From Candidatus Nanoarchaeia archaeon (GTDB taxonomy: Archaea; Nanobdellota; Nanobdellia; WJKC01): a DNA stretch of 64,000 nucleotides. The stretch's first letter is position 1, and each line of letters begins with the position of its first letter. Under the pieces are notes generated by a model. The model was not told where the DNA came from. It searched no databases and was given only the letters and a program-made list of their open reading frames with translations. The stretch lies in assembly GCA_041653515.1 (NCBI GenBank), contig JBAZFG010000001.1, forward strand, positions 74,332-138,331. Direction: 5' to 3'. This document shows, piece after piece, positions 9,132 to 37,662 of the stretch. Made by a program: the position numbers and the translations under genes.

Positions 9132-10076
9132 ATGATTAACATAATAATATTAATCCTATCACTTAGTGTCTTAATGTTCTCAAGCGGCAAGGCTGTTAAG
9201 TACGTGATGAAATTATCAAGAATTTTTGGCATTAGCGAAATGTCAGCTGGTTTCATTATTTTATCAGTGGCCACTTCACTGCCTGAATTAGTTGTTTCAA
9301 TTAATGCTGCGATGATTGGTGAGGGCGCGCTCGCTGTAGGCAACGTTCTTGGTTCAAATATTGCTAATATTACTATCATCCTTGGTTTAGCAGTGATTAT
9401 TAGTCGTAAGCGAAAAATTGTTTTCACCAAAAAAGTGTTTGATAACTTGATTGAATTCCTTTTTATTTCATCATTAATCCCATTGTTTATCTTGCAGACA
9501 GGCCATGTTAGTCTTGTGCTTGGCATAGTGCTTATCTCACTTTTCATTTTCTTCAGCTTTAAGACCCCTACAAAAGTTAAAGGCATTGAGGGCATTCATG
9601 TCGTGTTTAAGAAAGATAAGATATTAGTTATAATAAAATTCGTGATTGCCGTAATAATAGTAATTATTTCATCTAACTTTGTGGTTGATAGTAGTGTTAA
9701 TATTGCTGCGTTATTTTCAATCCCACCATCAATTATTGGCGCAACAGTTATCGCTCTGGGCACGTCACTGCCTGAATTAACCACTACTGTTCAGGCATTT
9801 AGGAAAAGATTATATAACGTTGGTTTAGGCAATGTTATTGGCAGTTGTATTACTAACCTGACTCTGATTCTTGGCATTACTTCAATATTTAATAATGTTC
9901 AATTAAACATTGTGTCTTTTACTTCACTTACTTTGTTTGCGATAATGGCTTCAATGATTACTTGGTATTTTGTCAGCACTGGCCGTCGCTTGGATAAACG
10001 CGAAGCATTCTTACTAATTGGTCTTTACACAATATTTATATTGCAAGAGCTTGGTTTCTCTTTGTTTGTATTATGA
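9132..10076 (+). CDS. CaCA-family cation/Ca2+ exchanger (YrbG-like) membrane protein
   Basis: Two alpha-repeats (GNVLGSNIANITIILG; GTSLPELTTTV) and ~10 TM helices. Confidence 0.7.
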   Translation: MINIIILILSLSVLMFSSGKAVKYVMKLSRIFGISEMSAGFIILSVATSLPELVVSINAAMIGEGALAVGNVLGSNIANITIILGLAVIISRKRKIVFTKKVFDNLIEFLFISSLIPLFILQTGHVSLVLGIVLISLFIFFSFKTPTKVKGIEGIHVVFKKDKILVIIKFVIAVIIVIISSNFVVDSSVNIAALFSIPPSIIGATVIALGTSLPELTTTVQAFRKRLYNVGLGNVIGSCITNLTLILGITSIFNNVQLNIVSFTSLTLFAIMASMITWYFVSTGRRLDKREAFLLIGLYTIFILQELGFSLFVL

Positions 10077-10930
10077 AAATAGGTCGAGTTAAACTTAATA
10101 GTAATTTATTGTTGGCGCCAATGCTTGGTTTCACAAATAGTGCTTTTAGGCACTTATGTCATGATTACGGTGCTGGCTTAGTTACTACTCCGTTAATCAA
10201 TGAGAACGCTGTTCTGAATAACCCTTTAATTATTGACGCGGTTCCGGGCGAAGCGGTTCAATTAATTGGCAGTGACCCAATTAAATTATCAAGAGCAGCT
10301 GTTATTGCCCAGCCTCATTGTGATTTAATTGACCTTAATTTTGGTTGCCCTGCTACTCGCGAAGCCGTTTGTGGGGTTGGTGCTATCCTCTTGAAGAAAC
10401 CTGCTTTGATTAAAAAATTAGTTAGCAGTGTTGTCAAGTCAGTTGATTGCCCAGTGACTGCTAAGATTCGCCTTGGCTTTGATAAGATTAACGTGATTAA
10501 AGTCGCTAAAGCAATTGAGTTTGCTGGCGCGTCAGCCATCACTGTTCACGCCCGGCTTGCTAGTCAGGATTATTCAGTGCCTGCTGACTGGCCTTGGATT
10601 AAGCGAGTTAAGGAATCAATCAGTATCCCTGTTATTGGCAACGGCGACGTTAAAAATCAGGCTGACGCTAATCAGATGATTAGTGAAACTAACTGTGATG
10701 CTGTGATGATTGGCCGGGCTGCTATTGGTAACCCGTTCATCTTTAAAGGGGTTGAGCCATCAGTCAAGGATCGTCGCATTGCTTTTAAGAAATTAGTCAG
10801 TTATGATTGTCCAATGCAGGACTTGAAATTACAAGCACTAAATTTTGTTAAAGGACTGCCCGGTGCTGCGCGAATAAAACAATCAATAATGAAAGCAAGT
10901 AATGAAAAAGAATTAATCAATTTCTTATAA
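10073..10930 (+). CDS. dus: tRNA-dihydrouridine synthase (Dus family)
   Basis: LAPMLGFTNSAFRHL… DLNFGCP … TIM-barrel Dus motifs. Confidence 0.8.
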   Translation: MKIGRVKLNSNLLLAPMLGFTNSAFRHLCHDYGAGLVTTPLINENAVLNNPLIIDAVPGEAVQLIGSDPIKLSRAAVIAQPHCDLIDLNFGCPATREAVCGVGAILLKKPALIKKLVSSVVKSVDCPVTAKIRLGFDKINVIKVAKAIEFAGASAITVHARLASQDYSVPADWPWIKRVKESISIPVIGNGDVKNQADANQMISETNCDAVMIGRAAIGNPFIFKGVEPSVKDRRIAFKKLVSYDCPMQDLKLQALNFVKGLPGAARIKQSIMKASNEKELINFL

Positions 10931-10931
10931 C

Positions 10932-11051
10932 CCCAATTATCCTTGGGCTTGTGTTATCATCCCAAGGCGGGGGACAGATTCCCCCTCCTCTAGGCTACTC
11001 CGCCCCTTTCTGCTTAATTATCCCAATTATCCTTGGGCTCGTGTTATCATC
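10932..11051 (+). repeat. 30-bp direct repeat (10932-10961 / 11022-11051, 1 mismatch) flanking a 60-bp GC-rich hairpin insert that contains the gattccccctc core
   Basis: cccaattatccttgggctYgtgttatcatc occurs twice. The insert carries a GGGGGA-cagat-TCCCCC hairpin. DR1 begins 1 nt after the dus stop; DR2 plus the insert encode the C-terminus of the minus-strand gene. Confidence 0.7.
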
Positions 11052-11888
11052 ATATATTACTGATGGCCCAATCAATACTATTGTTTTTTCAAGCATTACT
11101 TTATCTTTTAATTCTGCTTGCCTTGATAGTAAACCGTTGATGACCATGAATTTTTTTAACTCGCCTTTGAAGAATCTTGATTTAATTATTTCACCACTCA
11201 ATTCTTTTGTTTCTTTTAGCTCGTTACTTAAGATTGAGCCTCGCTCTAAGTCCTTCACATCGCAGTTCTTGAGCGAGACCCCAACCCGCGCGGGCCAATT
11301 AATCTCTTTATAATCAACGTCCATTGATTGCATGCTGTTTAATTGGGCTGGCCTGCCACCAGGCAATAAAACAAATTTATCCTTAACCTTGATTGTCCCG
11401 CCTTTAGTGAAACCAAGCGCTACTGTGCCAACATTCTTGATGTTAAAGAAGTGGTCAATGATGATTAATGGTTCATTTCCATACACTGGCTCAATCATCA
11501 GTAAATCATCTTTTAATTGTTTGATGTCATCATTATTGTTTATTATTCTAAAGTTATAATCAAGGCCAAAACTCTTGACTTGCTCAACTAAGTGTTGCTT
11601 GTCTAGCGGCACAATGAAACAGCCTTTCTTGCCCAGCAAGTCCAATAGTATTATTATCTCGCCAAAGAATTTGTCAACAGCGCTTAACTCAACCACGACG
11701 TAGTCAGTCATGTTAACTGCCTGAATCAGGGTCTTGATTTTTTCCGGAAAACCAATCGGCCTAACAATTGTTAGCACTGAATCAGTTTTCTTATAATGAA
11801 GAAATTCAAGGTCACTAACTGTTGCTTTATTGCCAAGCATTTTAGCTGTCTCGTCACTACCAATAAAACAAGCGCAAACATTTTTCAT
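10995..11888 (-). CDS. EF-Tu/aIF2-gamma-fold protein with degenerate (non-canonical) GTP-binding motifs
   Basis: Domain order is collinear with translational GTPases (G-like domain, beta-barrel domain II GTVALGFTKGGTIKV…, domain III). However, the P-loop GHVDHGKT is replaced by GSDETAKM and no NKxD is present. Confidence 0.5.
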   Translation of the reverse strand: MKNVCACFIGSDETAKMLGNKATVSDLEFLHYKKTDSVLTIVRPIGFPEKIKTLIQAVNMTDYVVVELSAVDKFFGEIIILLDLLGKKGCFIVPLDKQHLVEQVKSFGLDYNFRIINNNDDIKQLKDDLLMIEPVYGNEPLIIIDHFFNIKNVGTVALGFTKGGTIKVKDKFVLLPGGRPAQLNSMQSMDVDYKEINWPARVGVSLKNCDVKDLERGSILSNELKETKELSGEIIKSRFFKGELKKFMVINGLLSRQAELKDKVMLEKTIVLIGPSVIYDDNTSPRIIGIIKQKGAE

Positions 11889-17363: not shown

Positions 17364-17765
17364 TTAAGTTATTTTCTTAAATTCCTCAATCCTTTTTGAA
17401 TGTTCAATTTCCCAGTCTTTATCAGACTCATTAGGCTTATAGCATTCTATAAATTCAATATTATTACTTATTGTTCTTAATAATTCTCTTGCTTTTTTTG
17501 TTGGGTGCGAAGCACATATGATTACATCACATCCTTTTTCTTTTAATGGAATTAAATATTTCTTTAGCCAAGCAGGAGCGTCTCCAACGCTACAAATCCC
17601 TATTATTTTTCCATTATGGATAAAACTTAAACAAAAATCTTTTCTTATTTTTGGTCTCAAAACACAAATACTTGATTTAAAATATTCTTCCAGAATTTTT
17701 TTTATTGTCGTGCTTTTACCAATTTTTGCTTTACCTTCAAAACAGATTATTTTAGGGTTATCCAT
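17364..17765 (-). CDS. mini P-loop NTPase / NMP-kinase-like protein (133 aa)
   Basis: Walker A GKAKIGKST right after the start MDNPKIICFEG. The ORF-track N-terminal extension (MLLNLVLI x3) is read-through of the tandem repeat and is rejected. Confidence 0.5.
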   Translation of the reverse strand: MDNPKIICFEGKAKIGKSTTIKKILEEYFKSSICVLRPKIRKDFCLSFIHNGKIIGICSVGDAPAWLKKYLIPLKEKGCDVIICASHPTKKARELLRTISNNIEFIECYKPNESDKDWEIEHSKRIEEFKKIT

Positions 17766-17790
17766 AAATAAATCAATAAAATCACTTTTT

Positions 17791-17886
17791 AAAAGCATTA
17801 TTAATACTAAATTTAAAAGCATTATTAATACTAAATTTAAAAGCATTATTAATACTAAATTTAAAAGCATTATTAATACTAAAAAA
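17791..17886. repeat. 24-bp tandem repeat, ~3.75 copies (aaaagcattattaatactaaattt), immediately upstream of the P-loop gene
   Basis: Perfect head-to-tail copies at 17791, 17815 and 17839, with a partial copy at 17863. Confidence 0.9.
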
Positions 17887-25086: not shown

Positions 25087-25158
25087 TAAGAGATTTTATT
25101 ATTATAACATTATAAAGATCATTGTAATTCAGTTCTCATTTTATCCCTGAACGCGCGA

Positions 25159-25340
25159 ATCATTAATGGGTGTATTAGTGGGTTCTTATCATACTCGACC
25201 GCAGGGAGAAGTATCCCCCTTCAGTCTTGAGAAACCCTGATTCCCCCTCTACGTTTATTTTGTCTTAATGGCGTTACTGATTAATTCCTTGAATTTTCTT
25301 ATCATTAGTGGGTGGATTAATGGGTTCTTGTCGTAATTGA
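25159..25340 (+). repeat. ~40-bp imperfect direct repeat (25159-25198 / 25301-25340, ~85% identity) flanking a GC-rich core (25199-25254) that contains ctgattccccctc
   Basis: The copy inside the gene encodes …YDKNPLIHPLMI of the radical-SAM/ArcS protein. The distal copy encodes the same peptide followed by an alternative tail, RAFRDKMRTELQ*. Confidence 0.65.
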
Positions 25341-26514
25341 TTTTATTCATTAATTGCTCGTCGCATAAATCTACTAATTTTATCCCCAGTTCCTTGCACG
25401 CGTTCTTCAAGCACTGACCTGACTCACTCTTTGGTTTATAATAAGAGAATACTTGCTCGTACTTATGAGCTGTTAAGTAATCCTTGACCCGTTGAGTGTT
25501 AATCCTAACATACTCTTTCATTACTTCTGGCGTCTCGTTCCGCTCATCCCAGTCGTAAGCGTTGAATGGGTACTTGTCAGCGAACTCAATTGGGATAACC
25601 CCTGGGTTGCTGATAACAATAATATGAGTATTCTTATACCAATCAAAACCAGTAATAGCGCGCCTGATTGAAACATGCGTCCGACTATTATAATAAGGCT
25701 TCTTCTTACTGCAAGGCAAGAACAAAGCAATAGTTTTGTTCAACGGCTTATTATACAAACGAACCAAGTAATCCTGCCAAACGTTAAAGTGAGGGTGAGT
25801 CACGAACTCAACCCCAACGCCATTTAAATCAGCCTTCTTCTCTAACGGGAATTTAGGCACGAACGCATAATTATTCGGCTCTAACTGAACGCTCTCATAC
25901 TTTTTTGTTCGCTTAAAAAACTCTTGCTCACTAATAGGCTTCCACTCACCTGCCACCCATAAATCAAACAAGCCTGACCTGGCGTGAGGAAAAGTATTAA
26001 TCAACACTATTTCATTACTATACTCGCGCGCTAAGGCAACGCTTTTATCCAATAACCCATCATAATCAAACGGGTGATTAATCAATAAGTATGACTTAAC
26101 TTTGAAGCCATGAGCGTGAACTCGCTCACAAGCCCTCTTATAAGCCTCAACCGTGATGCCCTTGTTTAATTTCTTCAATACTTCATTATCACCAGCCTCA
26201 AGCCCAATCGCCACTACTAATTTGACACCTTTGAACAAAGAGAGTTTCTCGTCAGTCACGTACTCTGGTCTTGACTCAATATACAAGACTCGACCCTGCA
26301 TTACTTTAGCCACATGAGTCTGGAATTTAATTGGGAATTGACAGTCATCCAATAATGAGCCACTGCAGAATAATTTAACATCACCCTCACCACTCTCCCT
26401 ATCAAACCTGTCAATTAACTCATTAGCACTAATATTAACATCATCCTTACCCCAACCACAAAACAAACACTTACCCCAAGAGCACTTGCCGGCGTTTAAC
26501 ACAATCTCTTTCAT
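25255..26514 (-). CDS. radical-SAM domain protein fused to an ArcS-type catalytic domain (PC-X3-KPY-X2-S-X2-H); putative archaeosine (G+) synthesis enzyme
   Basis: N-terminal Cys cluster CSWGKCLFC (Cx4Cx2C) and C-terminal LPCSKKKPYYNSRTH matching the ArcS signature. Divergent from arcTGT. Start placed at Met 26514 (MKEIVLNAGKC) to avoid overlap with tgtA. Confidence 0.6.
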   Translation of the reverse strand: MKEIVLNAGKCSWGKCLFCGWGKDDVNISANELIDRFDRESGEGDVKLFCSGSLLDDCQFPIKFQTHVAKVMQGRVLYIESRPEYVTDEKLSLFKGVKLVVAIGLEAGDNEVLKKLNKGITVEAYKRACERVHAHGFKVKSYLLINHPFDYDGLLDKSVALAREYSNEIVLINTFPHARSGLFDLWVAGEWKPISEQEFFKRTKKYESVQLEPNNYAFVPKFPLEKKADLNGVGVEFVTHPHFNVWQDYLVRLYNKPLNKTIALFLPCSKKKPYYNSRTHVSIRRAITGFDWYKNTHIIVISNPGVIPIEFADKYPFNAYDWDERNETPEVMKEYVRINTQRVKDYLTAHKYEQVFSYYKPKSESGQCLKNACKELGIKLVDLCDEQLMNKINYDKNPLIHPLMIRKFKELISNAIKTK

Positions 26515-26566
26515 AAAAAAATGGAATCCGTAACACTTTTTAAATACCTTGCGTATCACTTTGTTC

Positions 26567-28216
26567 ATGTCATTTGAAATCAAGGACCACGACGGCCTCG
26601 GCCGATTAGGCGTACTGACTGTTAACAATAAGTCAATCACTACACCTAACATTGCGGTAGTCATTAACCCTAATGACTTAACCATCCCCCCTGAAGAAAT
26701 GATGCGTGACTTCGGGGTTGATTTAATTATCACTAACGCCTACATTATTAAAAACTCAAAAAAAGCCAAGGACATTGAAGCTAAAGGATTGCACGAATAC
26801 CTTAATTTCCCCGGCATTATTTACACTGACTCAGGCACTTACCAGATGTTTAGCAAGGGCGGTGCTGCCATCACTAACGAGGAAACACTCGCTTACCAAA
26901 CTAAAATTGGGAGTGATATCCACACGCCACTTGATTTATTCACACTGCCAGATGATGACAGGGCAACCGCAGTCAGCAAACTTACTGAAACAATCAAGCG
27001 GATTAAAGCCATAAGAACAACTAATTTCTCAGCCCCAATACAAGGCGGCTCGTTCATGGACCTGCGAGCTAAAGCCTGCAAAGAACTAGCCAAGGTTAAA
27101 CCAACTGTTTACCCAATTGGCGGTATCGTACCATTAATGATTAGCTATGATTTTAAACGATTAATTGAAGTAATCCTTGAGTGCAAAAAACACTTACCCT
27201 TAAACACACCTGTTCACGCTTTCGGCGCTGGTCACCCGCTTATCTTTGCCTTACTCGCTTACGCAGGAGTTGACTTATTTGACAGCGCTAGTTACGCGTT
27301 ATACGCCAAGGAAGCTAAGTACATCACTGAGACTGGCACAATGAAAGTGGATGAGTTAGTCTCACTGCCTTGTAATTGCCCTATTTGCGCTAAGCATAAG
27401 CCAAGCGATTTGCGCGACGTTGGCTTACTAGCCCGACATAACTTGCACGCCTTAATGAGAGAAGTAAGGTTAGTTAGACAAGCCATTCAGCAAGACCGAT
27501 TATTTGAATTAGTAATGTCAAGAGCGATGAGCCACCCAAACGTTTACTTTGCGTTTAAACGATTGCTTGAGTATAAAGAATTAATCAGCGAGCATAACCC
27601 TATTCGTAAGAGAAACGCTTTATTCTGGACTGGAGCTTTGAGTAGTGAGCGACCTGAGATTAATTATGCTAATAACCAACTTAAATTACTTAAACTAAAA
27701 AAAGCACCCAAACCATTAAAACTAGTTTACCCTTTTGGTCAGAACGTTGGCTGGAGTATTGATTATTCAGTAAAAAATTATGATGACTTAGCAACCCTTC
27801 GATTAATGGCTGATTACCAATTCGGTGCTGGCGCTGGACTAAAATTAATCCCTGACAATGTCACCATTATTAAAAGCCGTAACCAGCGATTACATGAAGT
27901 ATTACTTAAAAATGAATTATTATTCATCGTCCGCGCCCGTGATGGTTACTTTGCACTACATAAAGCTGGCGCGAAACGATTAAAACAATACTTAAAAAAA
28001 GTGGTCGCGCCAGATGAATATAAAGAGTTTTACCAAAAAGGCGGCGACGTGTTCGCCAAACACGTGCTTAAAGCAAACAACATTAAGCCGCGCGAGGAAG
28101 TCGGTGTTTATTGCGGCAAAGAATTAGTCGGGGTCGGCGAGGCAACACTATCAAGCCGTGAGATGATTGTTTTTGATAAAGGCGTGGCTGTTAAGACACG
28201 TGAAGGAATAAAATAA
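26567..28216 (+). CDS. tgtA: archaeosine tRNA-guanine transglycosylase (arcTGT) with C-terminal PUA domain
   Basis: MSFEIKDHDGLGRLG N-terminus, Zn site CNCPICAKH, ~550 aa. Confidence 0.9.
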   Translation: MSFEIKDHDGLGRLGVLTVNNKSITTPNIAVVINPNDLTIPPEEMMRDFGVDLIITNAYIIKNSKKAKDIEAKGLHEYLNFPGIIYTDSGTYQMFSKGGAAITNEETLAYQTKIGSDIHTPLDLFTLPDDDRATAVSKLTETIKRIKAIRTTNFSAPIQGGSFMDLRAKACKELAKVKPTVYPIGGIVPLMISYDFKRLIEVILECKKHLPLNTPVHAFGAGHPLIFALLAYAGVDLFDSASYALYAKEAKYITETGTMKVDELVSLPCNCPICAKHKPSDLRDVGLLARHNLHALMREVRLVRQAIQQDRLFELVMSRAMSHPNVYFAFKRLLEYKELISEHNPIRKRNALFWTGALSSERPEINYANNQLKLLKLKKAPKPLKLVYPFGQNVGWSIDYSVKNYDDLATLRLMADYQFGAGAGLKLIPDNVTIIKSRNQRLHEVLLKNELLFIVRARDGYFALHKAGAKRLKQYLKKVVAPDEYKEFYQKGGDVFAKHVLKANNIKPREEVGVYCGKELVGVGEATLSSREMIVFDKGVAVKTREGIK

Positions 28217-28523: not shown

Positions 28524-28673
28524 TAGGATTAAGTAATCATCATTCTGTTATTAAAGTTTTTTATTAACATTAATGCAAAAGTATTAAAAAAACAATCCTT
28601 GTCTTAAAGAATCAAAAGCGACTGTAGTCCAAGCTTTTCTTAGCAAGAAAACCTTGACCAAAAGAACTAAAAG

Positions 28674-28681
28674 TTATATTA
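28674..28681 (+). promoter_or_regulatory. TATA-box-like element (ttatatta) with upstream A-rich BRE-like sequence ~20 nt before tRNA-Gly
   Basis: aaaagttatatta lies ~18-25 nt upstream of the mature tRNA 5' end. Confidence 0.35.
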
Positions 28682-28698
28682 CAGTCAATGTAAGAAAA

Positions 28699-28769
28699 GC
28701 GTTCGTAGTCTAGTGGTAGGATCTCAGCCTTCCAAGCTGATGACCTGGGTTCGAATCCCAGCGAGCGCA
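28699..28769 (+). tRNA. tRNA-Gly (anticodon UCC)
   Basis: Cloverleaf read by eye: acceptor GCGTTCG/CGAGCGC, anticodon loop CUUCCAA, T-arm GGGTTCGAATCCC; no encoded CCA. Confidence 0.85.
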
Positions 28770-28850
28770 TCAAAGATGCGAACTGATGGGCTCTGTGCGA
28801 GACTGAGCTGAAAGCGAAGAGCAAAGCGCACAGCAATCCCAGCAGTCGCA
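28754..28850 (+). repeat. partial duplication of the tRNA-Gly 3' end (aatcccagcgagcgca / aatcccagcagtcgca) flanking a 65-bp GC-rich hairpin insert
   Basis: 13-14 of 16 nt identical. The insert (28770-28834) has a CTGTGCG…CGCACAG inverted repeat and is unusually GC-rich for this genome. Confidence 0.45.
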
Positions 28851-28912
28851 GACACTTGCTCATTCTTGTTTGATAGCAATCTTTAATAAGTATTAGTTGT
28901 TAGTATTCTTTT

Positions 28913-29689
28913 ATGCCAGTTGCTAAAGAATTAACCCCTGTTAACGTGGTTGATAAAATTAAACTAGTGATTAAGAAAGGAATTACATTCAAGAACCCAG
29001 TTATTATTGAAGGGTTTCAAGGCGTCGGGCTCGTAGGCACCTTAGCAGCTCAATACTTATCATCCAAGAAGGATTTTGAAACCATTGGTTACGTTGAGAG
29101 TGAAGGTATTCCACCAATAGCCTTACTAGTTAATGGAGAGATAAAAAACCCAATTAAGATACTATCAAATAAGAATCATGATATAATTATTATTGAATCA
29201 GAGTTATCCATCCCGCGCGGAATAATTTACGAGCTAAGTGATGAGATTGCTAAATGGGCTAAACGAATTAAAGCCCGTGAAATAATCTGCTTAGAAGGCA
29301 TTAACGTGCCTGAATCAGAACGTGATTATGAGATTTTTGGCATGAGCACTGATAAAAAGATTATGGCATCACTTATCAAAAAAGGCGTTAAGAAACTTGA
29401 GAACGGAATAGTTATTGGTATGAGTGCAGCATTATTATTAAAATGCAAAGAGTATAACTTGCCAGCGACTTGCTTAATGGTTGAGAGCAGACCTGAACTA
29501 CCCGATGGCTTGGCCGCAGCTGCTGTTCTTGAAACACTTGGCAAAGTTCATTCTTTTAGCATTGATGTTACTGACTTAAAGAAACAAGCAAGTGTTTTTG
29601 AAAAGAAGATGCAGAAAGTTATTAGTCATGCTGACCACTTTAAAATAGATGAAGGAAAAAATCCTAATAAAACATCAATTTATGGTTGA
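28913..29689 (+). CDS. PAC2-family proteasome assembly chaperone (PbaA/PbaB-like)
   Basis: IIEGFQGVGLVGTLAAQ…IGYVESEGIPP matches the PAC2 N-terminal signature. Confidence 0.75.
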   Translation: MPVAKELTPVNVVDKIKLVIKKGITFKNPVIIEGFQGVGLVGTLAAQYLSSKKDFETIGYVESEGIPPIALLVNGEIKNPIKILSNKNHDIIIIESELSIPRGIIYELSDEIAKWAKRIKAREIICLEGINVPESERDYEIFGMSTDKKIMASLIKKGVKKLENGIVIGMSAALLLKCKEYNLPATCLMVESRPELPDGLAAAAVLETLGKVHSFSIDVTDLKKQASVFEKKMQKVISHADHFKIDEGKNPNKTSIYG

Positions 29690-33893: not shown

Positions 33894-34586
33894 ATGGATT
33901 TAATTGAATTATTGAAGGATAAGAAGGCTATCTTGTTTGATTGGGATGGAGTCTTGTTTAATTCATTGCCTGCTCATTTGAAGCACGCTAAGCATTGCTG
34001 TGAGGCGCGCGGCATTATTAATCACCCTGTTTTTGAGTCAATGAAGGCTTATCGTGAGTTCCTGAGTGATTGCCCGGGCCATTTCTCTGAGATTTATAAA
34101 AAACTAGGCATTGATTACATGCTTAATCATGAGCAAATAACTAATGATTTCATTAAGTTCATGAATGATTCTTCTCTTGAATTATTTGACGGCGCTTATG
34201 AATTGCTTTGTGATTTAAAAGAGCATTACTTGGTTGGCTTGGTTACTTCATCATTCCGCGAGAGTGTTATCCCGCGTTTGCCTTATGGTTTTAATTTTCA
34301 TAGTGAAGTTTTTGCTGGCGAGGCAGCGTCAAAACCAGCGCCTAACGGCATCATTAAGTGCTTGGCTGAGCTTGACGTTAAACCTGAGGAAGCGGTTTAC
34401 GTTGGTGACATGATTAGTGATGCCCAAGCAGCTAGTGCTGCAGGGGTTAGTTTCATTGGTGTGACGTATGGTTATAATAATCATCAAGCACTGGCAGCCC
34501 AACCGCACTTATTAATTGTTGACAGTGTCGAAACGCTTAAAAAGACCCTGCTTACTTATAGTAGATTGTCAGCGACCATAACTTAA
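33894..34586 (+). CDS. HAD-superfamily hydrolase
   Basis: Motif I LFDWDGVLFNS and motif IV GDMISD. The 3' end overlaps the 5S rRNA. Confidence 0.75.
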   Translation: MDLIELLKDKKAILFDWDGVLFNSLPAHLKHAKHCCEARGIINHPVFESMKAYREFLSDCPGHFSEIYKKLGIDYMLNHEQITNDFIKFMNDSSLELFDGAYELLCDLKEHYLVGLVTSSFRESVIPRLPYGFNFHSEVFAGEAASKPAPNGIIKCLAELDVKPEEAVYVGDMISDAQAASAAGVSFIGVTYGYNNHQALAAQPHLLIVDSVETLKKTLLTYSRLSATIT

Positions 34587-34682
34587 GGGGTACCACCCGT
34601 TCTCATCCCGAACACGGAAGTTAAGCCTTTAAGTGTTATAACCTGTACTGTGTAATACATGGGAACGTTATAAGTTGCCGAC
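34568..34682 (+). rRNA. 5S ribosomal RNA (stand-alone)
   Basis: CCACCCGTTCTCATCCCGAACACGGAAGTTAAGC matches the universal 5S helix II/III-loop C region. Terminal helix GTCAGCGAC/GTTGCCGAC; ~115 nt. Confidence 0.8.
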
Positions 34683-34751
34683 ATCTATTTTTTTTTAAAT
34701 TACACTAGTGCTAACTAAGAACTTTTATAAAATAGTACATTTTACTATAGA

Positions 34752-37057: not shown

Positions 37058-37297
37058 ATGAATGTTGGTTTTAAAATCGCTGGCGTTATCTGTTTAGTCC
37101 TAGGTGTTATTGGCGCCTTAGGTGTTTTAGGAACAACTAACCCATTGAGCATTATTAGTGACCCATTATTTAACCTAACTAAATTATTCCTCACTGACAG
37201 CGGCTCATTCTTCCTATGGGTCTTTATCATCGTGCTTGGCTTAACGCTCGTTGGCCCAAGTAAAGGTTTTATTAAAGGCATGGCTACGCGAAAGTAA
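37058..37297 (+). CDS. small membrane protein (79 aa)
   Basis: 2 TM helices. The stop codon lies inside DR1 of the downstream element. Confidence 0.4.
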   Translation: MNVGFKIAGVICLVLGVIGALGVLGTTNPLSIISDPLFNLTKLFLTDSGSFFLWVFIIVLGLTLVGPSKGFIKGMATRK

Positions 37298-37369
37298 GCT
37301 TTATTAAAACAAAGGGGCTGTGCCCCTCTTGACTCCCCCTTTCTTTGAAAGTAAGCTTTATTAAAACAA
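37290..37369 (+). repeat. perfect 23-bp direct repeat (37290-37312 / 37347-37369) flanking a 34-bp GC-rich hairpin insert containing cttgactccccct
   Basis: gaaagtaagctttattaaaacaa occurs twice and includes the stop codon of the upstream gene. The insert has an AGGGGC-tgt-GCCCCT hairpin. Confidence 0.75.
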
Positions 37370-37389: not shown

Positions 37390-37662
37390 ATGGGGCTTGA
37401 TGATTGGGAAGATATTATTCCAGGGATTGTTATTGTAATATCCATTTTAGCTTTAATTGGTGGGATAGCTAATTTCGTGCCAGCCATTAAGTCAGTGACT
37501 TGGCTTTATACTATCACTAATTTTTTCAACAATATCTTCATGTATGTAGCAGCTGTAATAACACCTTACATACCACTTCAAGCAATCTATATGGCAATAA
37601 TTATTGAGATATTAATGATAATATTTAGCATCATCTTCATACTAAAAGTAACAGTCTTATAG
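37390..37662 (+). CDS. small membrane protein (90 aa)
   Basis: 3 TM helices. Confidence 0.4.
   Translation: MGLDDWEDIIPGIVIVISILALIGGIANFVPAIKSVTWLYTITNFFNNIFMYVAAVITPYIPLQAIYMAIIIEILMIIFSIIFILKVTVL

Follow-up and report, generated by a model that had tools for sequence, protein, structure and literature searches.

An orphan tRNA-Gly 3' end behind a GC-rich hairpin block: a candidate duplication-insertion or recombination scar at the tRNA-Gly(UCC) gene of a Candidatus Nanoarchaeia archaeon

Analysis of a 64-kb stretch of a Candidatus Nanoarchaeia archaeon genome (contig JBAZFG010000001.1; hereafter the window, which was all of the sequence covered from this genome) revealed that its tRNA-Gly(UCC) gene, the one tRNA identified in the 64 kb by ARAGORN and Rfam, is followed by a GC-rich block and then by a second copy of the tRNA 3' end. 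On balance, the block and the copy are probably a scar of duplication-insertion or recombination that has kept the 3' end of an older tRNA-Gly allele. This orphan end lies where the ancestral tRNA would have ended, is of the same acceptor type as an orphan tRNA-Gly 5' end found upstream, and is matched by empty sites in related genomes, and it was therefore read as the displaced 3' end of the old allele. The features of the locus and of comparable sites are collected in Table 1.

Orphan ends and the block between the copies

The two copies of the tRNA-Gly 3' end share the same orientation and 13 of 16 positions, including an exact core of 9 nt. The downstream copy (copy 2) was the sole other match in the window to the last 16 nt of the tRNA with at most three mismatches, compared with 0.26 such matches per 64 kb, counting both strands, in shuffled sequence; scaled to the same strand and to at most 150 nt downstream of the tRNA, the chance expectation was approximately 3e-4. 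The duplicated 3' end 65 nt downstream, first noticed in a sequence-only reading of this DNA, was thus far above what shuffling yields. The same reading described the copy as degenerate, which was not borne out. Comparison of the live tRNA (GCGUUCG/CGAGCGC) with the copy (CAGUCGC) placed the three mismatches at exactly acceptor positions 67-69, the only freely varying positions of the 16-mer in an alignment of relatives, and three mismatches would land precisely there in about 1 of 560 placements by our count. Positions 67-69 vary together with positions 4-6, and the compensatory combination differs in most lineages (ACT, GCT, GTC, ATC, GCC, CCT, and TTC). The mismatches are a coherent allele difference and not decay, amounting to an exchange that restores pairing with the orphan 5' end upstream. 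The acceptor strand and discriminator of copy 2 (CAGTCGCA) were identical to the tRNA 3' end in the related loci L006/L012, and the copy is followed by GACACTT, similar to the GACCCTT trailer of genuine tRNAs in L015 and L018. The live tRNA, in contrast, is followed by TCAAAGAT. From copy 2 to the ATG of the downstream PAC2-family gene there are 62 nt, and the corresponding distance from the tRNA end is about 40-52 nt in L005, L006, and L013, and 38 nt from the copy in L002.

The upstream orphan 5' end (GCGACTGTAGTC) agreed with the start of the tRNA-Gly of L006/L012 at 12 of 12 positions and with that of the live tRNA at 9 of 12. Its GCGACTG (28618-28624) is perfectly complementary to CAGTCGC in copy 2, and the orphan 5' and 3' ends form a predicted duplex of 8 bp (-15.2 kcal/mol). 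The orphan 5' end also stands behind the promoter-like element P1 at the spacing where a tRNA normally stands. The first 20 nt of P1 are identical in L002/L003 and almost identical in L006/L012, and in these loci the element is located 34-36 nt 5' of the tRNA start, consistent with a putative promoter. Since the two orphan ends are complementary and both match the L006/L012 acceptor, the live tRNA was placed between two ends of an older allele; in terms of acceptor types, an intact "type I-like" tRNA is enclosed by the two ends of a "type II" tRNA-Gly.

The high G+C content attributed earlier to the intervening 65 nt was confirmed (Table 1), as was a 7-bp inverted repeat (CTGTGCG/CGCACAG), which turned out to be the middle of a longer imperfect palindrome between 28777-28799 and 28827-28850. 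Copy 2 is thereby the 3' arm of a 74-nt hairpin whose arms differ at about 5 of 24 positions. The minimum free energy (MFE) fold of the hairpin as RNA was -30.7 kcal/mol (z -1.67 versus shuffles) and the DNA fold of 28754-28850 was -20.3 kcal/mol (z -2.54), while pairing between the block and the 16-nt copy by itself was not significant (p=0.12). The block had no Rfam match even at E<=10, no similarity elsewhere in the window or in any fetched locus, and no open reading frames (ORFs) except spurious antisense ones. That a GC-rich hairpin ends by accident in a tRNA-3'-like sequence is hardly credible. Such an accident would agree with the lack of significance of the block-copy complementarity taken by itself and with the post hoc choice of the 16-mer; it is opposed by the low positional expectation, by mismatches confined to covarying positions where they restore complementarity to the upstream fragment, and by a separate case of an exact 12-mer in L002. 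As a side observation, the last four bases of the tRNA, together with TC, are perfectly palindromic over 6 bp with 28775-28780 (CGCATC-AAA-GATGCG, region 28766-28781), so that the same TGCG is able to pair with either the live or the orphan tRNA end.

Table 1. Coordinates of the features at the tRNA-Gly locus and at the sites compared with it (window coordinates unless a locus is named).
Feature	Position	Strand	Sequence or remark
Archaeosine tRNA-guanine transglycosylase (TGT) gene, with PUA domain	26549-28216		
P1, promoter-like element	28572..28592	+	AATGCAAAAGTATTAAAAAAA; B recognition element (BRE)/TATA type; precedes tRNA-Gly in relatives
Orphan tRNA-Gly 5' end, start of R1	28618..28629	+	GCGACTGTAGTC; "type II" acceptor; 81 nt upstream of the live tRNA
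R1 hairpin	28630..28656	+	Imperfect 12-bp palindrome CAAGCTTTTCTT-AGC-AAGAAAACCTTG
P2, second promoter-like stretch, and leader of the live tRNA	28657..28698	+	CCAAAAGAACTAAAAGTTATATTA...
R1 element, window	28618-28698		
R1 element, L013	1269-1340	-	
R1 element, L015	4086-4166	-	
R1 element, L018	1012-1091	+	
Intact tRNA-Gly(UCC)	28699..28769	+	"Type I-like" acceptor GCGTTCG/CGAGCGC; ARAGORN; Rfam RF00005, 69.6 bits, E 4e-13
Direct-repeat copy 1, 3' end of the live tRNA	28754..28769	+	AATCCCAGCGAGCGCA
GC-rich block between the copies	28770..28834	+	65 nt; 55-58% G+C versus 36% for the window
5' palindrome arm	28777..28799	+	TGCGAACTGATGGGCTCTGTGCG; inverted imperfect copy of 28827-28850
Inner 7-bp stem	28793-28799 / 28827-28833	+	CTGTGCG/CGCACAG; encloses a 27-nt purine-rich loop
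Direct-repeat copy 2, orphan tRNA-Gly 3' end	28835..28850	+	AATCCCAGCAGTCGCA; "type II" acceptor; 13/16 versus copy 1
PAC2 promoter-like element	28874..28890	+	TAGCAATCTTTAATAAG; conserved; in L013 directly after the tRNA 3' end, in L002 directly next to the 12-nt copy
PAC2-family (proteasome assembly chaperone) gene	28913..29689	+	Synteny anchor
35-nt direct repeat, 91% identity	10927-11051		55-nt GC-rich insert with GGGGGA/TCCCCC hairpin
64-nt direct repeat, 72% identity	25135-25340		78-nt insert with two TCCCCCT motifs; 3' end of radical-SAM/DUF5591 gene 25255-26733 (minus)
Exact 23-nt promoter-like repeat	37290-37369		GAAAGTAAGCTTTATTAAAACAA; 34-nt insert, just upstream of an ORF starting at 37390

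The tRNA-Gly locus in related genomes

Relatives were collected as the contigs of PAC2 homologues and by two DNA-pattern scans, giving more than 10 loci with the order TGT-tRNA-Gly-PAC2-HAD; a metagenome scan with the 27-mer of the tRNA anticodon arm returned only two loci, and an initial scan of genome contigs using the PAC2 protein gave no match. Beyond the metagenome-assembled genome (MAG) analyzed here, the next-best PAC2 homologues had 62-76% identity, so that close relatives were lacking for the comparison. L002 and L003 are the same sequence and represent the nearest relative (PAC2 76%), L006 and L012 are reported jointly, and L015 and L018 both belong to the MAG Bin_444, in which L015 is the tRNA-Gly UCC at the PAC2 locus and L018 a tRNA-Gly GCC elsewhere.

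Empty sites were observed directly in L005, L006/L012, and L013, where the tRNA 3' end is followed by a PAC2 promoter-like box (TAGGAATNTTTAATAAG) either immediately or within about 20 nt. The 65-nt block was absent from all relatives' loci compared (10 or more) and had no significant similarity to their spacers. Only an 8-mer (TCTGTGCG) and ACAGCA were common to the block and L009 at a similar position, and 33 of 200 shuffles scored as well. The absence of the block together with the empty sites argued that it is not a conserved trailer or small RNA (sRNA). Neither ground for refutation named in the sequence-only reading, a match below the expectation from shuffled sequence or a conserved trailer or sRNA, was thus borne out.

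The nearest relative contained a case of its own. In L002/L003, 12 nt of the tRNA's own 3' end (CCGGCGGGCGCA) recur without mismatch 49 nt downstream, adjoining the PAC2 promoter (L002 2902-2962), and the AT-rich spacer with the copy folds into a different hairpin (z about -3.3) that carries the copy in its 3' arm and an A6/T6 palindrome in the spacer. The L002 copy is an independent or re-homogenized event of the same architecture as in the window. The L002 tRNA-Gly(UCC) itself (2734-2901), in a locus for which ARAGORN reported no tRNA, is interrupted at the canonical 37/38 position by a 95-nt intron, for which the bulge-helix-bulge (BHB) check gave a good central helix and anticodon stem.

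Across the relatives, the tRNA-PAC2 spacer ranged from 47 to 1097 nt, the spacers of L004, L008, L010, and L011 contained differing small ORFans without a Pfam match, and the tRNA was inverted relative to PAC2 in L020 (about 1875-1950) and L021 (1-30). The spacer lengths, the varied ORFans, and the inversions identified the tRNA-PAC2 junction as a rearrangement hotspot. The ORF inserted in L011 is flanked by CACACTCA(T/A)TT-like repeats, and the 7-mer CCGCATA is present at both ends of the L010 insert.

Origin of the displaced ends

Copy 2 would represent the 3' terminal 16 nt of an earlier local allele with the acceptor GCGACTG/CAGTCGC, retaining its original trailer and PAC2 promoter. The palindromic 65-nt segment may have come to lie between the full tRNA and its duplicated 3' end through a short duplication-insertion where the tRNA meets PAC2, with a comparable event occurring independently in L002. 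Two orders of events are proposed. In history (a), a type II gene would first have gained the hairpin and the 3'-end copy, and its tRNA body would later have been swapped by recombination for a type I allele supplied by another tRNA-Gly allele or paralogue. In history (b), a type I tRNA and its 65-nt trailer would together have replaced positions 1-57 of the resident gene, using a homology anchor on the left and an illegitimate join in the T-loop on the right. Under either history, the old 5' end would survive in the R1 leader (28618-28629) and the old 3' end at 28835-28850. As RNA, the block and the orphan end most likely have no activity: both would be transcribed as a structured 3' trailer and cut off by RNase Z at the first discriminator, and the hairpin might at most aid transcription stop or insulation before the PAC2 promoter.

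Homology-facilitated illegitimate recombination and gene conversion between paralogous tRNA cassettes are general mechanisms in the bacterial literature, and we know of no report of such a mechanism in DPANN archaea. Such an exchange would account for the new acceptor on both strands, for the old ends outside the tract, and for the mixed types in Bin_444, although neither a donor nor an exchange was observed here.

For the hairpin, a parallel is available in template-switch mutations, which the account of hairpin formation in PMC10710096 describes as making hairpins in one replication event. The window agrees with that account in that 28777-28799 repeats, imperfectly and in inverted orientation, the adjacent 24 nt that include the orphan end, as such a switch would be expected to leave; however, the account concerns the origin of eukaryotic microRNAs, and about 5 of 24 differences between the arms, the 27-nt loop, and the direct repeat are left unexplained by it.

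Several observations weigh against a scar of duplication-insertion or recombination. Searches of the window, the fetched loci, and IMG/VR found no donor for the block, and the nearest relative, at 76% PAC2 identity, is too distant to catch intermediates. The 81-nt offset between the 5' copies (28618 to 28699) equals that between the 3' copies (28754 to 28835) and would have to be a coincidence if the locus is such a scar. A hairpin with a tRNA-end copy in its 3' arm recurs in two lineages, the window and L002, and this recurrence may reflect function or else a by-product of the insertion mechanism (fold-back or template switch). The orphan ends are without point decay, so that the event was recent or the ends are under selection.

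Entry of a tyrosine-integrase virus or plasmid at the tRNA-Gly 3' end (attB), leaving the 16-mers as attL/attR cores after deletion of all but 65 nt of the element, is an unlikely origin. The direct repeat of the tRNA 3' end around non-homologous DNA, the empty sites of L005, L006/L012, and L013, and the ORFan genes that gather at the junction in L004, L008, L010, and L011 are consistent with it, and tRNA fragments derived from integrated elements are well documented in archaea (PMC9897764). The Thermococcaceae tRNA gene fragments portrayed there resemble the present case in being 3' fragments in direct orientation beside an intact tRNA, in bracketing DNA that relatives lack, and in lying at a gene-insertion hotspot as attL/attR fragments. 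They contrast with it in that only 65 nt without an integrase or any other gene are bracketed here, the repeat differs at three covarying positions, an orphan 5' end occurs upstream, and the copy is a palindrome arm. The 65-nt insert contained no integrase or mobile-element gene or remnant, with the wider window not surveyed for integrases, and scans of IMG/VR for the block and for either type of 3' end gave nothing beyond chance or coding matches and one phage tRNA-Lys. Moreover, after a crossover in the 9-nt core the incoming 3' strand would not match the 5' acceptor strand of the host, but in the live tRNA a new acceptor is fully matched on both strands. Because no integrase, element, or attP was found and a plain crossover predicts neither the matched 5' strand nor the upstream relic, an integrase scar was retained as a minority rival only. 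Of the earlier suggestion of a classic tRNA att integration scar, a duplicate 3' end bracketing inserted DNA and the empty sites in relatives therefore stand, but the label "classic" does not.

It is quite improbable that the block and copy constitute a functional RNA co-transcribed with the tRNA, such as an H/ACA-like or kink-turn (K-turn) guide, a minihelix processed by RNases P and Z, or a terminator/insulator hairpin. The 74-nt hairpin has a lower helix of 12 layers (7 bp plus a bulged A, an A.G mismatch, and 4 bp) like an acceptor/T-arm stack, GA-rich apical motifs (CUGA...GAAGA), an ACA 3' of the stem, the G+C level of the stable RNAs of this AT-rich genome, and an analogous hairpin architecture in L002. 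These features are countered by the lack of an Rfam family at E<=10 and a fold no better than shuffles (z as above), by conservation of the block in none of 10 or more related loci, and by the T6 tract within the L002 hairpin, which probably ends transcription before the copy. Archaeal H/ACA guide sRNAs also consist of one irregular hairpin, about 70 nt long, that carries an internal loop, apical GA motifs, and an ACA past the basal stem; they require a K-turn or K-loop in the upper stem, with a GA directly 5' of the 3' strand of that stem, and an open pseudouridylation pocket whose top is 14-16 nt away from the ACA. Their defining features failed here: both the MFE and the centroid fold pair the pocket strands with each other (UGGG/CCCA), 18 nt separate the ACA from the upper stem, the bases just 5' of the 3' strand CGCACAG are AAAG, and the only K-turn-like motif (CUGA-GC...GC-GAA-GA) is inverted with a C-stem of 2-3 bp. 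A C/D box sRNA, which needs a C box (RUGAUGA) and a D box (CUGA) joined by a terminal stem as well as guides of about 12 nt, was likewise rejected, as a C-like cUGAUGg (28783-28789) and an internal CUGA are present but no D box near the 3' end and no Rfam match. A very remote alternative is a nested gene in which 28618-28629 (the orphan 5' end), 28711-28753 (the core of the live tRNA), and 28835-28850 (the orphan 3' end) would be exons that yield a second tRNA-Gly isodecoder once two intervening sequences of 81 nt are removed. Joined in silico, they form a perfect cloverleaf whose acceptor stem has seven Watson-Crick pairs (GCGACUG/CAGUCGC); the two segments to be removed are each exactly 81 nt long, the corresponding tRNA of L002 bears a genuine intron, and split and intron-rich tRNAs are a known trait of DPANN archaea. 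However, no BHB or relaxed HBh' motif was detected at any permitted junction (best H 3/4, h 3/4, h' 2/4) by a crude script that scored the canonical L002 intron, used as positive control, at H 4/4 and h 4/4. As R1 in L013 and L018 starts with the tRNA's own 5' end, splicing there would change nothing, and in L015 splicing would give a mismatched acceptor and the 3' partner is absent. The split, tri-split, and multi-intron tRNAs of Nanoarchaeum, Caldivirga, and Thermoproteales (PMC3218864 and PMC4033280) are comparable in that separated pieces could assemble a cloverleaf; in the window, by contrast, there is no BHB, the intervening DNA holds a complete independent tRNA, and the relatives are unsupportive. 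The 81-nt period also suggested a full-length decayed tandem tRNA, which was rejected for want of significant likeness of the hairpin and R1 interiors to the tRNA core: alignment of 28785-28834 with the core, global and local, gave p = 0.28-0.59 against shuffles, and no second RF00005 match was obtained at E<=10. The block as a relic of an acceptor/T-arm minihelix was discarded as well, its 5' arm reading more naturally as an uninterrupted inverted copy of the 3' end and its pairing being within the range of shuffles.

A duplication-insertion or recombination scar is ordinary in kind, as tRNA gene fragments beside tRNA genes, and unusual in detail. It mainly cautions annotators that tRNA-like ends beside DPANN tRNA genes need not be genes, and it offers a dated-looking snapshot of tRNA gene remodeling in a reduced archaeal genome, with both acceptor strands swapped jointly and the old ends left behind.

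The R1 leader, comparable inserts, and neighboring features

The orphan 5' end belongs to the leader element R1 (motif GTAGTCCAANCTTTTCTTANNAAGAAAANCTTGAC). In R1, the first 12 nt of a tRNA precede CAANCTTTTCTTANNAAGAAAANCTTGACYAAAAGAAY, which is an imperfect palindrome of 12 bp (arms CAANCTTTTCTTA..AAGAAAANCTTG), and a BRE/TATA-like box comes after it. A block of about 45 nt is invariant among the window, L013, L015, and L018, and in all four loci it comes right after GTAGTC and 72-83 nt 5' of a tRNA-Gly gene. The 5' fragment of R1 corresponds to the tRNA's own 5' end in L013 and L018 and, in L015, to the acceptor type of the GCC tRNA and not of the adjacent UCC tRNA; the GCC-type acceptor in L015 indicated that tRNA-Gly cassettes exchange parts, at least in Bin_444. 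In the window as in L015 and L018, the AAAAG plus A/T-rich box of P2 lies 34-36 nt 5' of the tRNA +1, which is the spacing of P1 in simple loci, and is a putative promoter of the live tRNA. R1 may be a promoter duplication combined with an operator or terminator, or else a small RNA.

The parallel drawn earlier with insertions at protein genes was supported by three further window sites at which direct repeats bracket short GC-rich inserts (Table 1). The insert at 10962-11016 falls within the last 12 codons of the minus-strand gene 10995-11888, which now ends in an insert-encoded tail, and the displaced original 3' end of this gene adjoins the stop of the convergent gene 10073-10930. An 11-mer (GATTCCCCCTC) is common to this insert and that of 25135-25340, and the insert of 37290-37369 consists of the hairpin AGGGGC-TGT-GCCCCT followed by CTTGACTCCCCCTTTCTTT. 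All three contain TCCCCCT and then a T-rich run. As the earlier reading had noted, the TCCCCCT core is absent from the tRNA insert (28770-28834), which shares no sequence with the three. A long target duplication with a short hairpin at the tRNA and at these three sites may nevertheless point to a common process. A broader class of 27-80 nt hairpin inserts with target duplications of 12-64 nt at gene boundaries in Nanoarchaeia, with the tRNA case as one member, is doubtful; its proposed members are the three TCCCCCT-core inserts, the 12-nt case of L002, and R1, in which the first 12 nt of tRNA-Gly and the promoter are duplicated around a conserved hairpin in at least three genomes and at two loci of one genome. 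Were such a class real, it would imply a specific insertion mechanism, e.g., wide staggered cuts with fill-in, target-primed reverse transcription of small RNAs, or template switching, and a retained function of R1 in tRNA-Gly expression; a mechanism shared by the hairpin inserts would be a new route of micro-insertion in archaea. Two features merit a survey, namely the pseudo-tRNA start with hairpin leader of R1 in several Nanoarchaeia and the short hairpin inserts with long duplications.

The genes near the site are of archaeal type, and genes for a HAD hydrolase and a class II glycyl-tRNA synthetase also occur in the neighborhood. A stand-alone 5S rRNA (72.8 bits) with a T9 tract 3', the only rRNA in the window, was identified at 34568-34683, with 16S and 23S not nearby and no flanking duplications of the type at the tRNA locus seen around it. 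At 17764-17883, a 24-nt AT-rich unit (TTTAAAAGCATTATTAATACTAAA) is repeated in tandem as three exact copies and one degenerate copy, and this array overlaps the minus-strand ORF 17364-17870.

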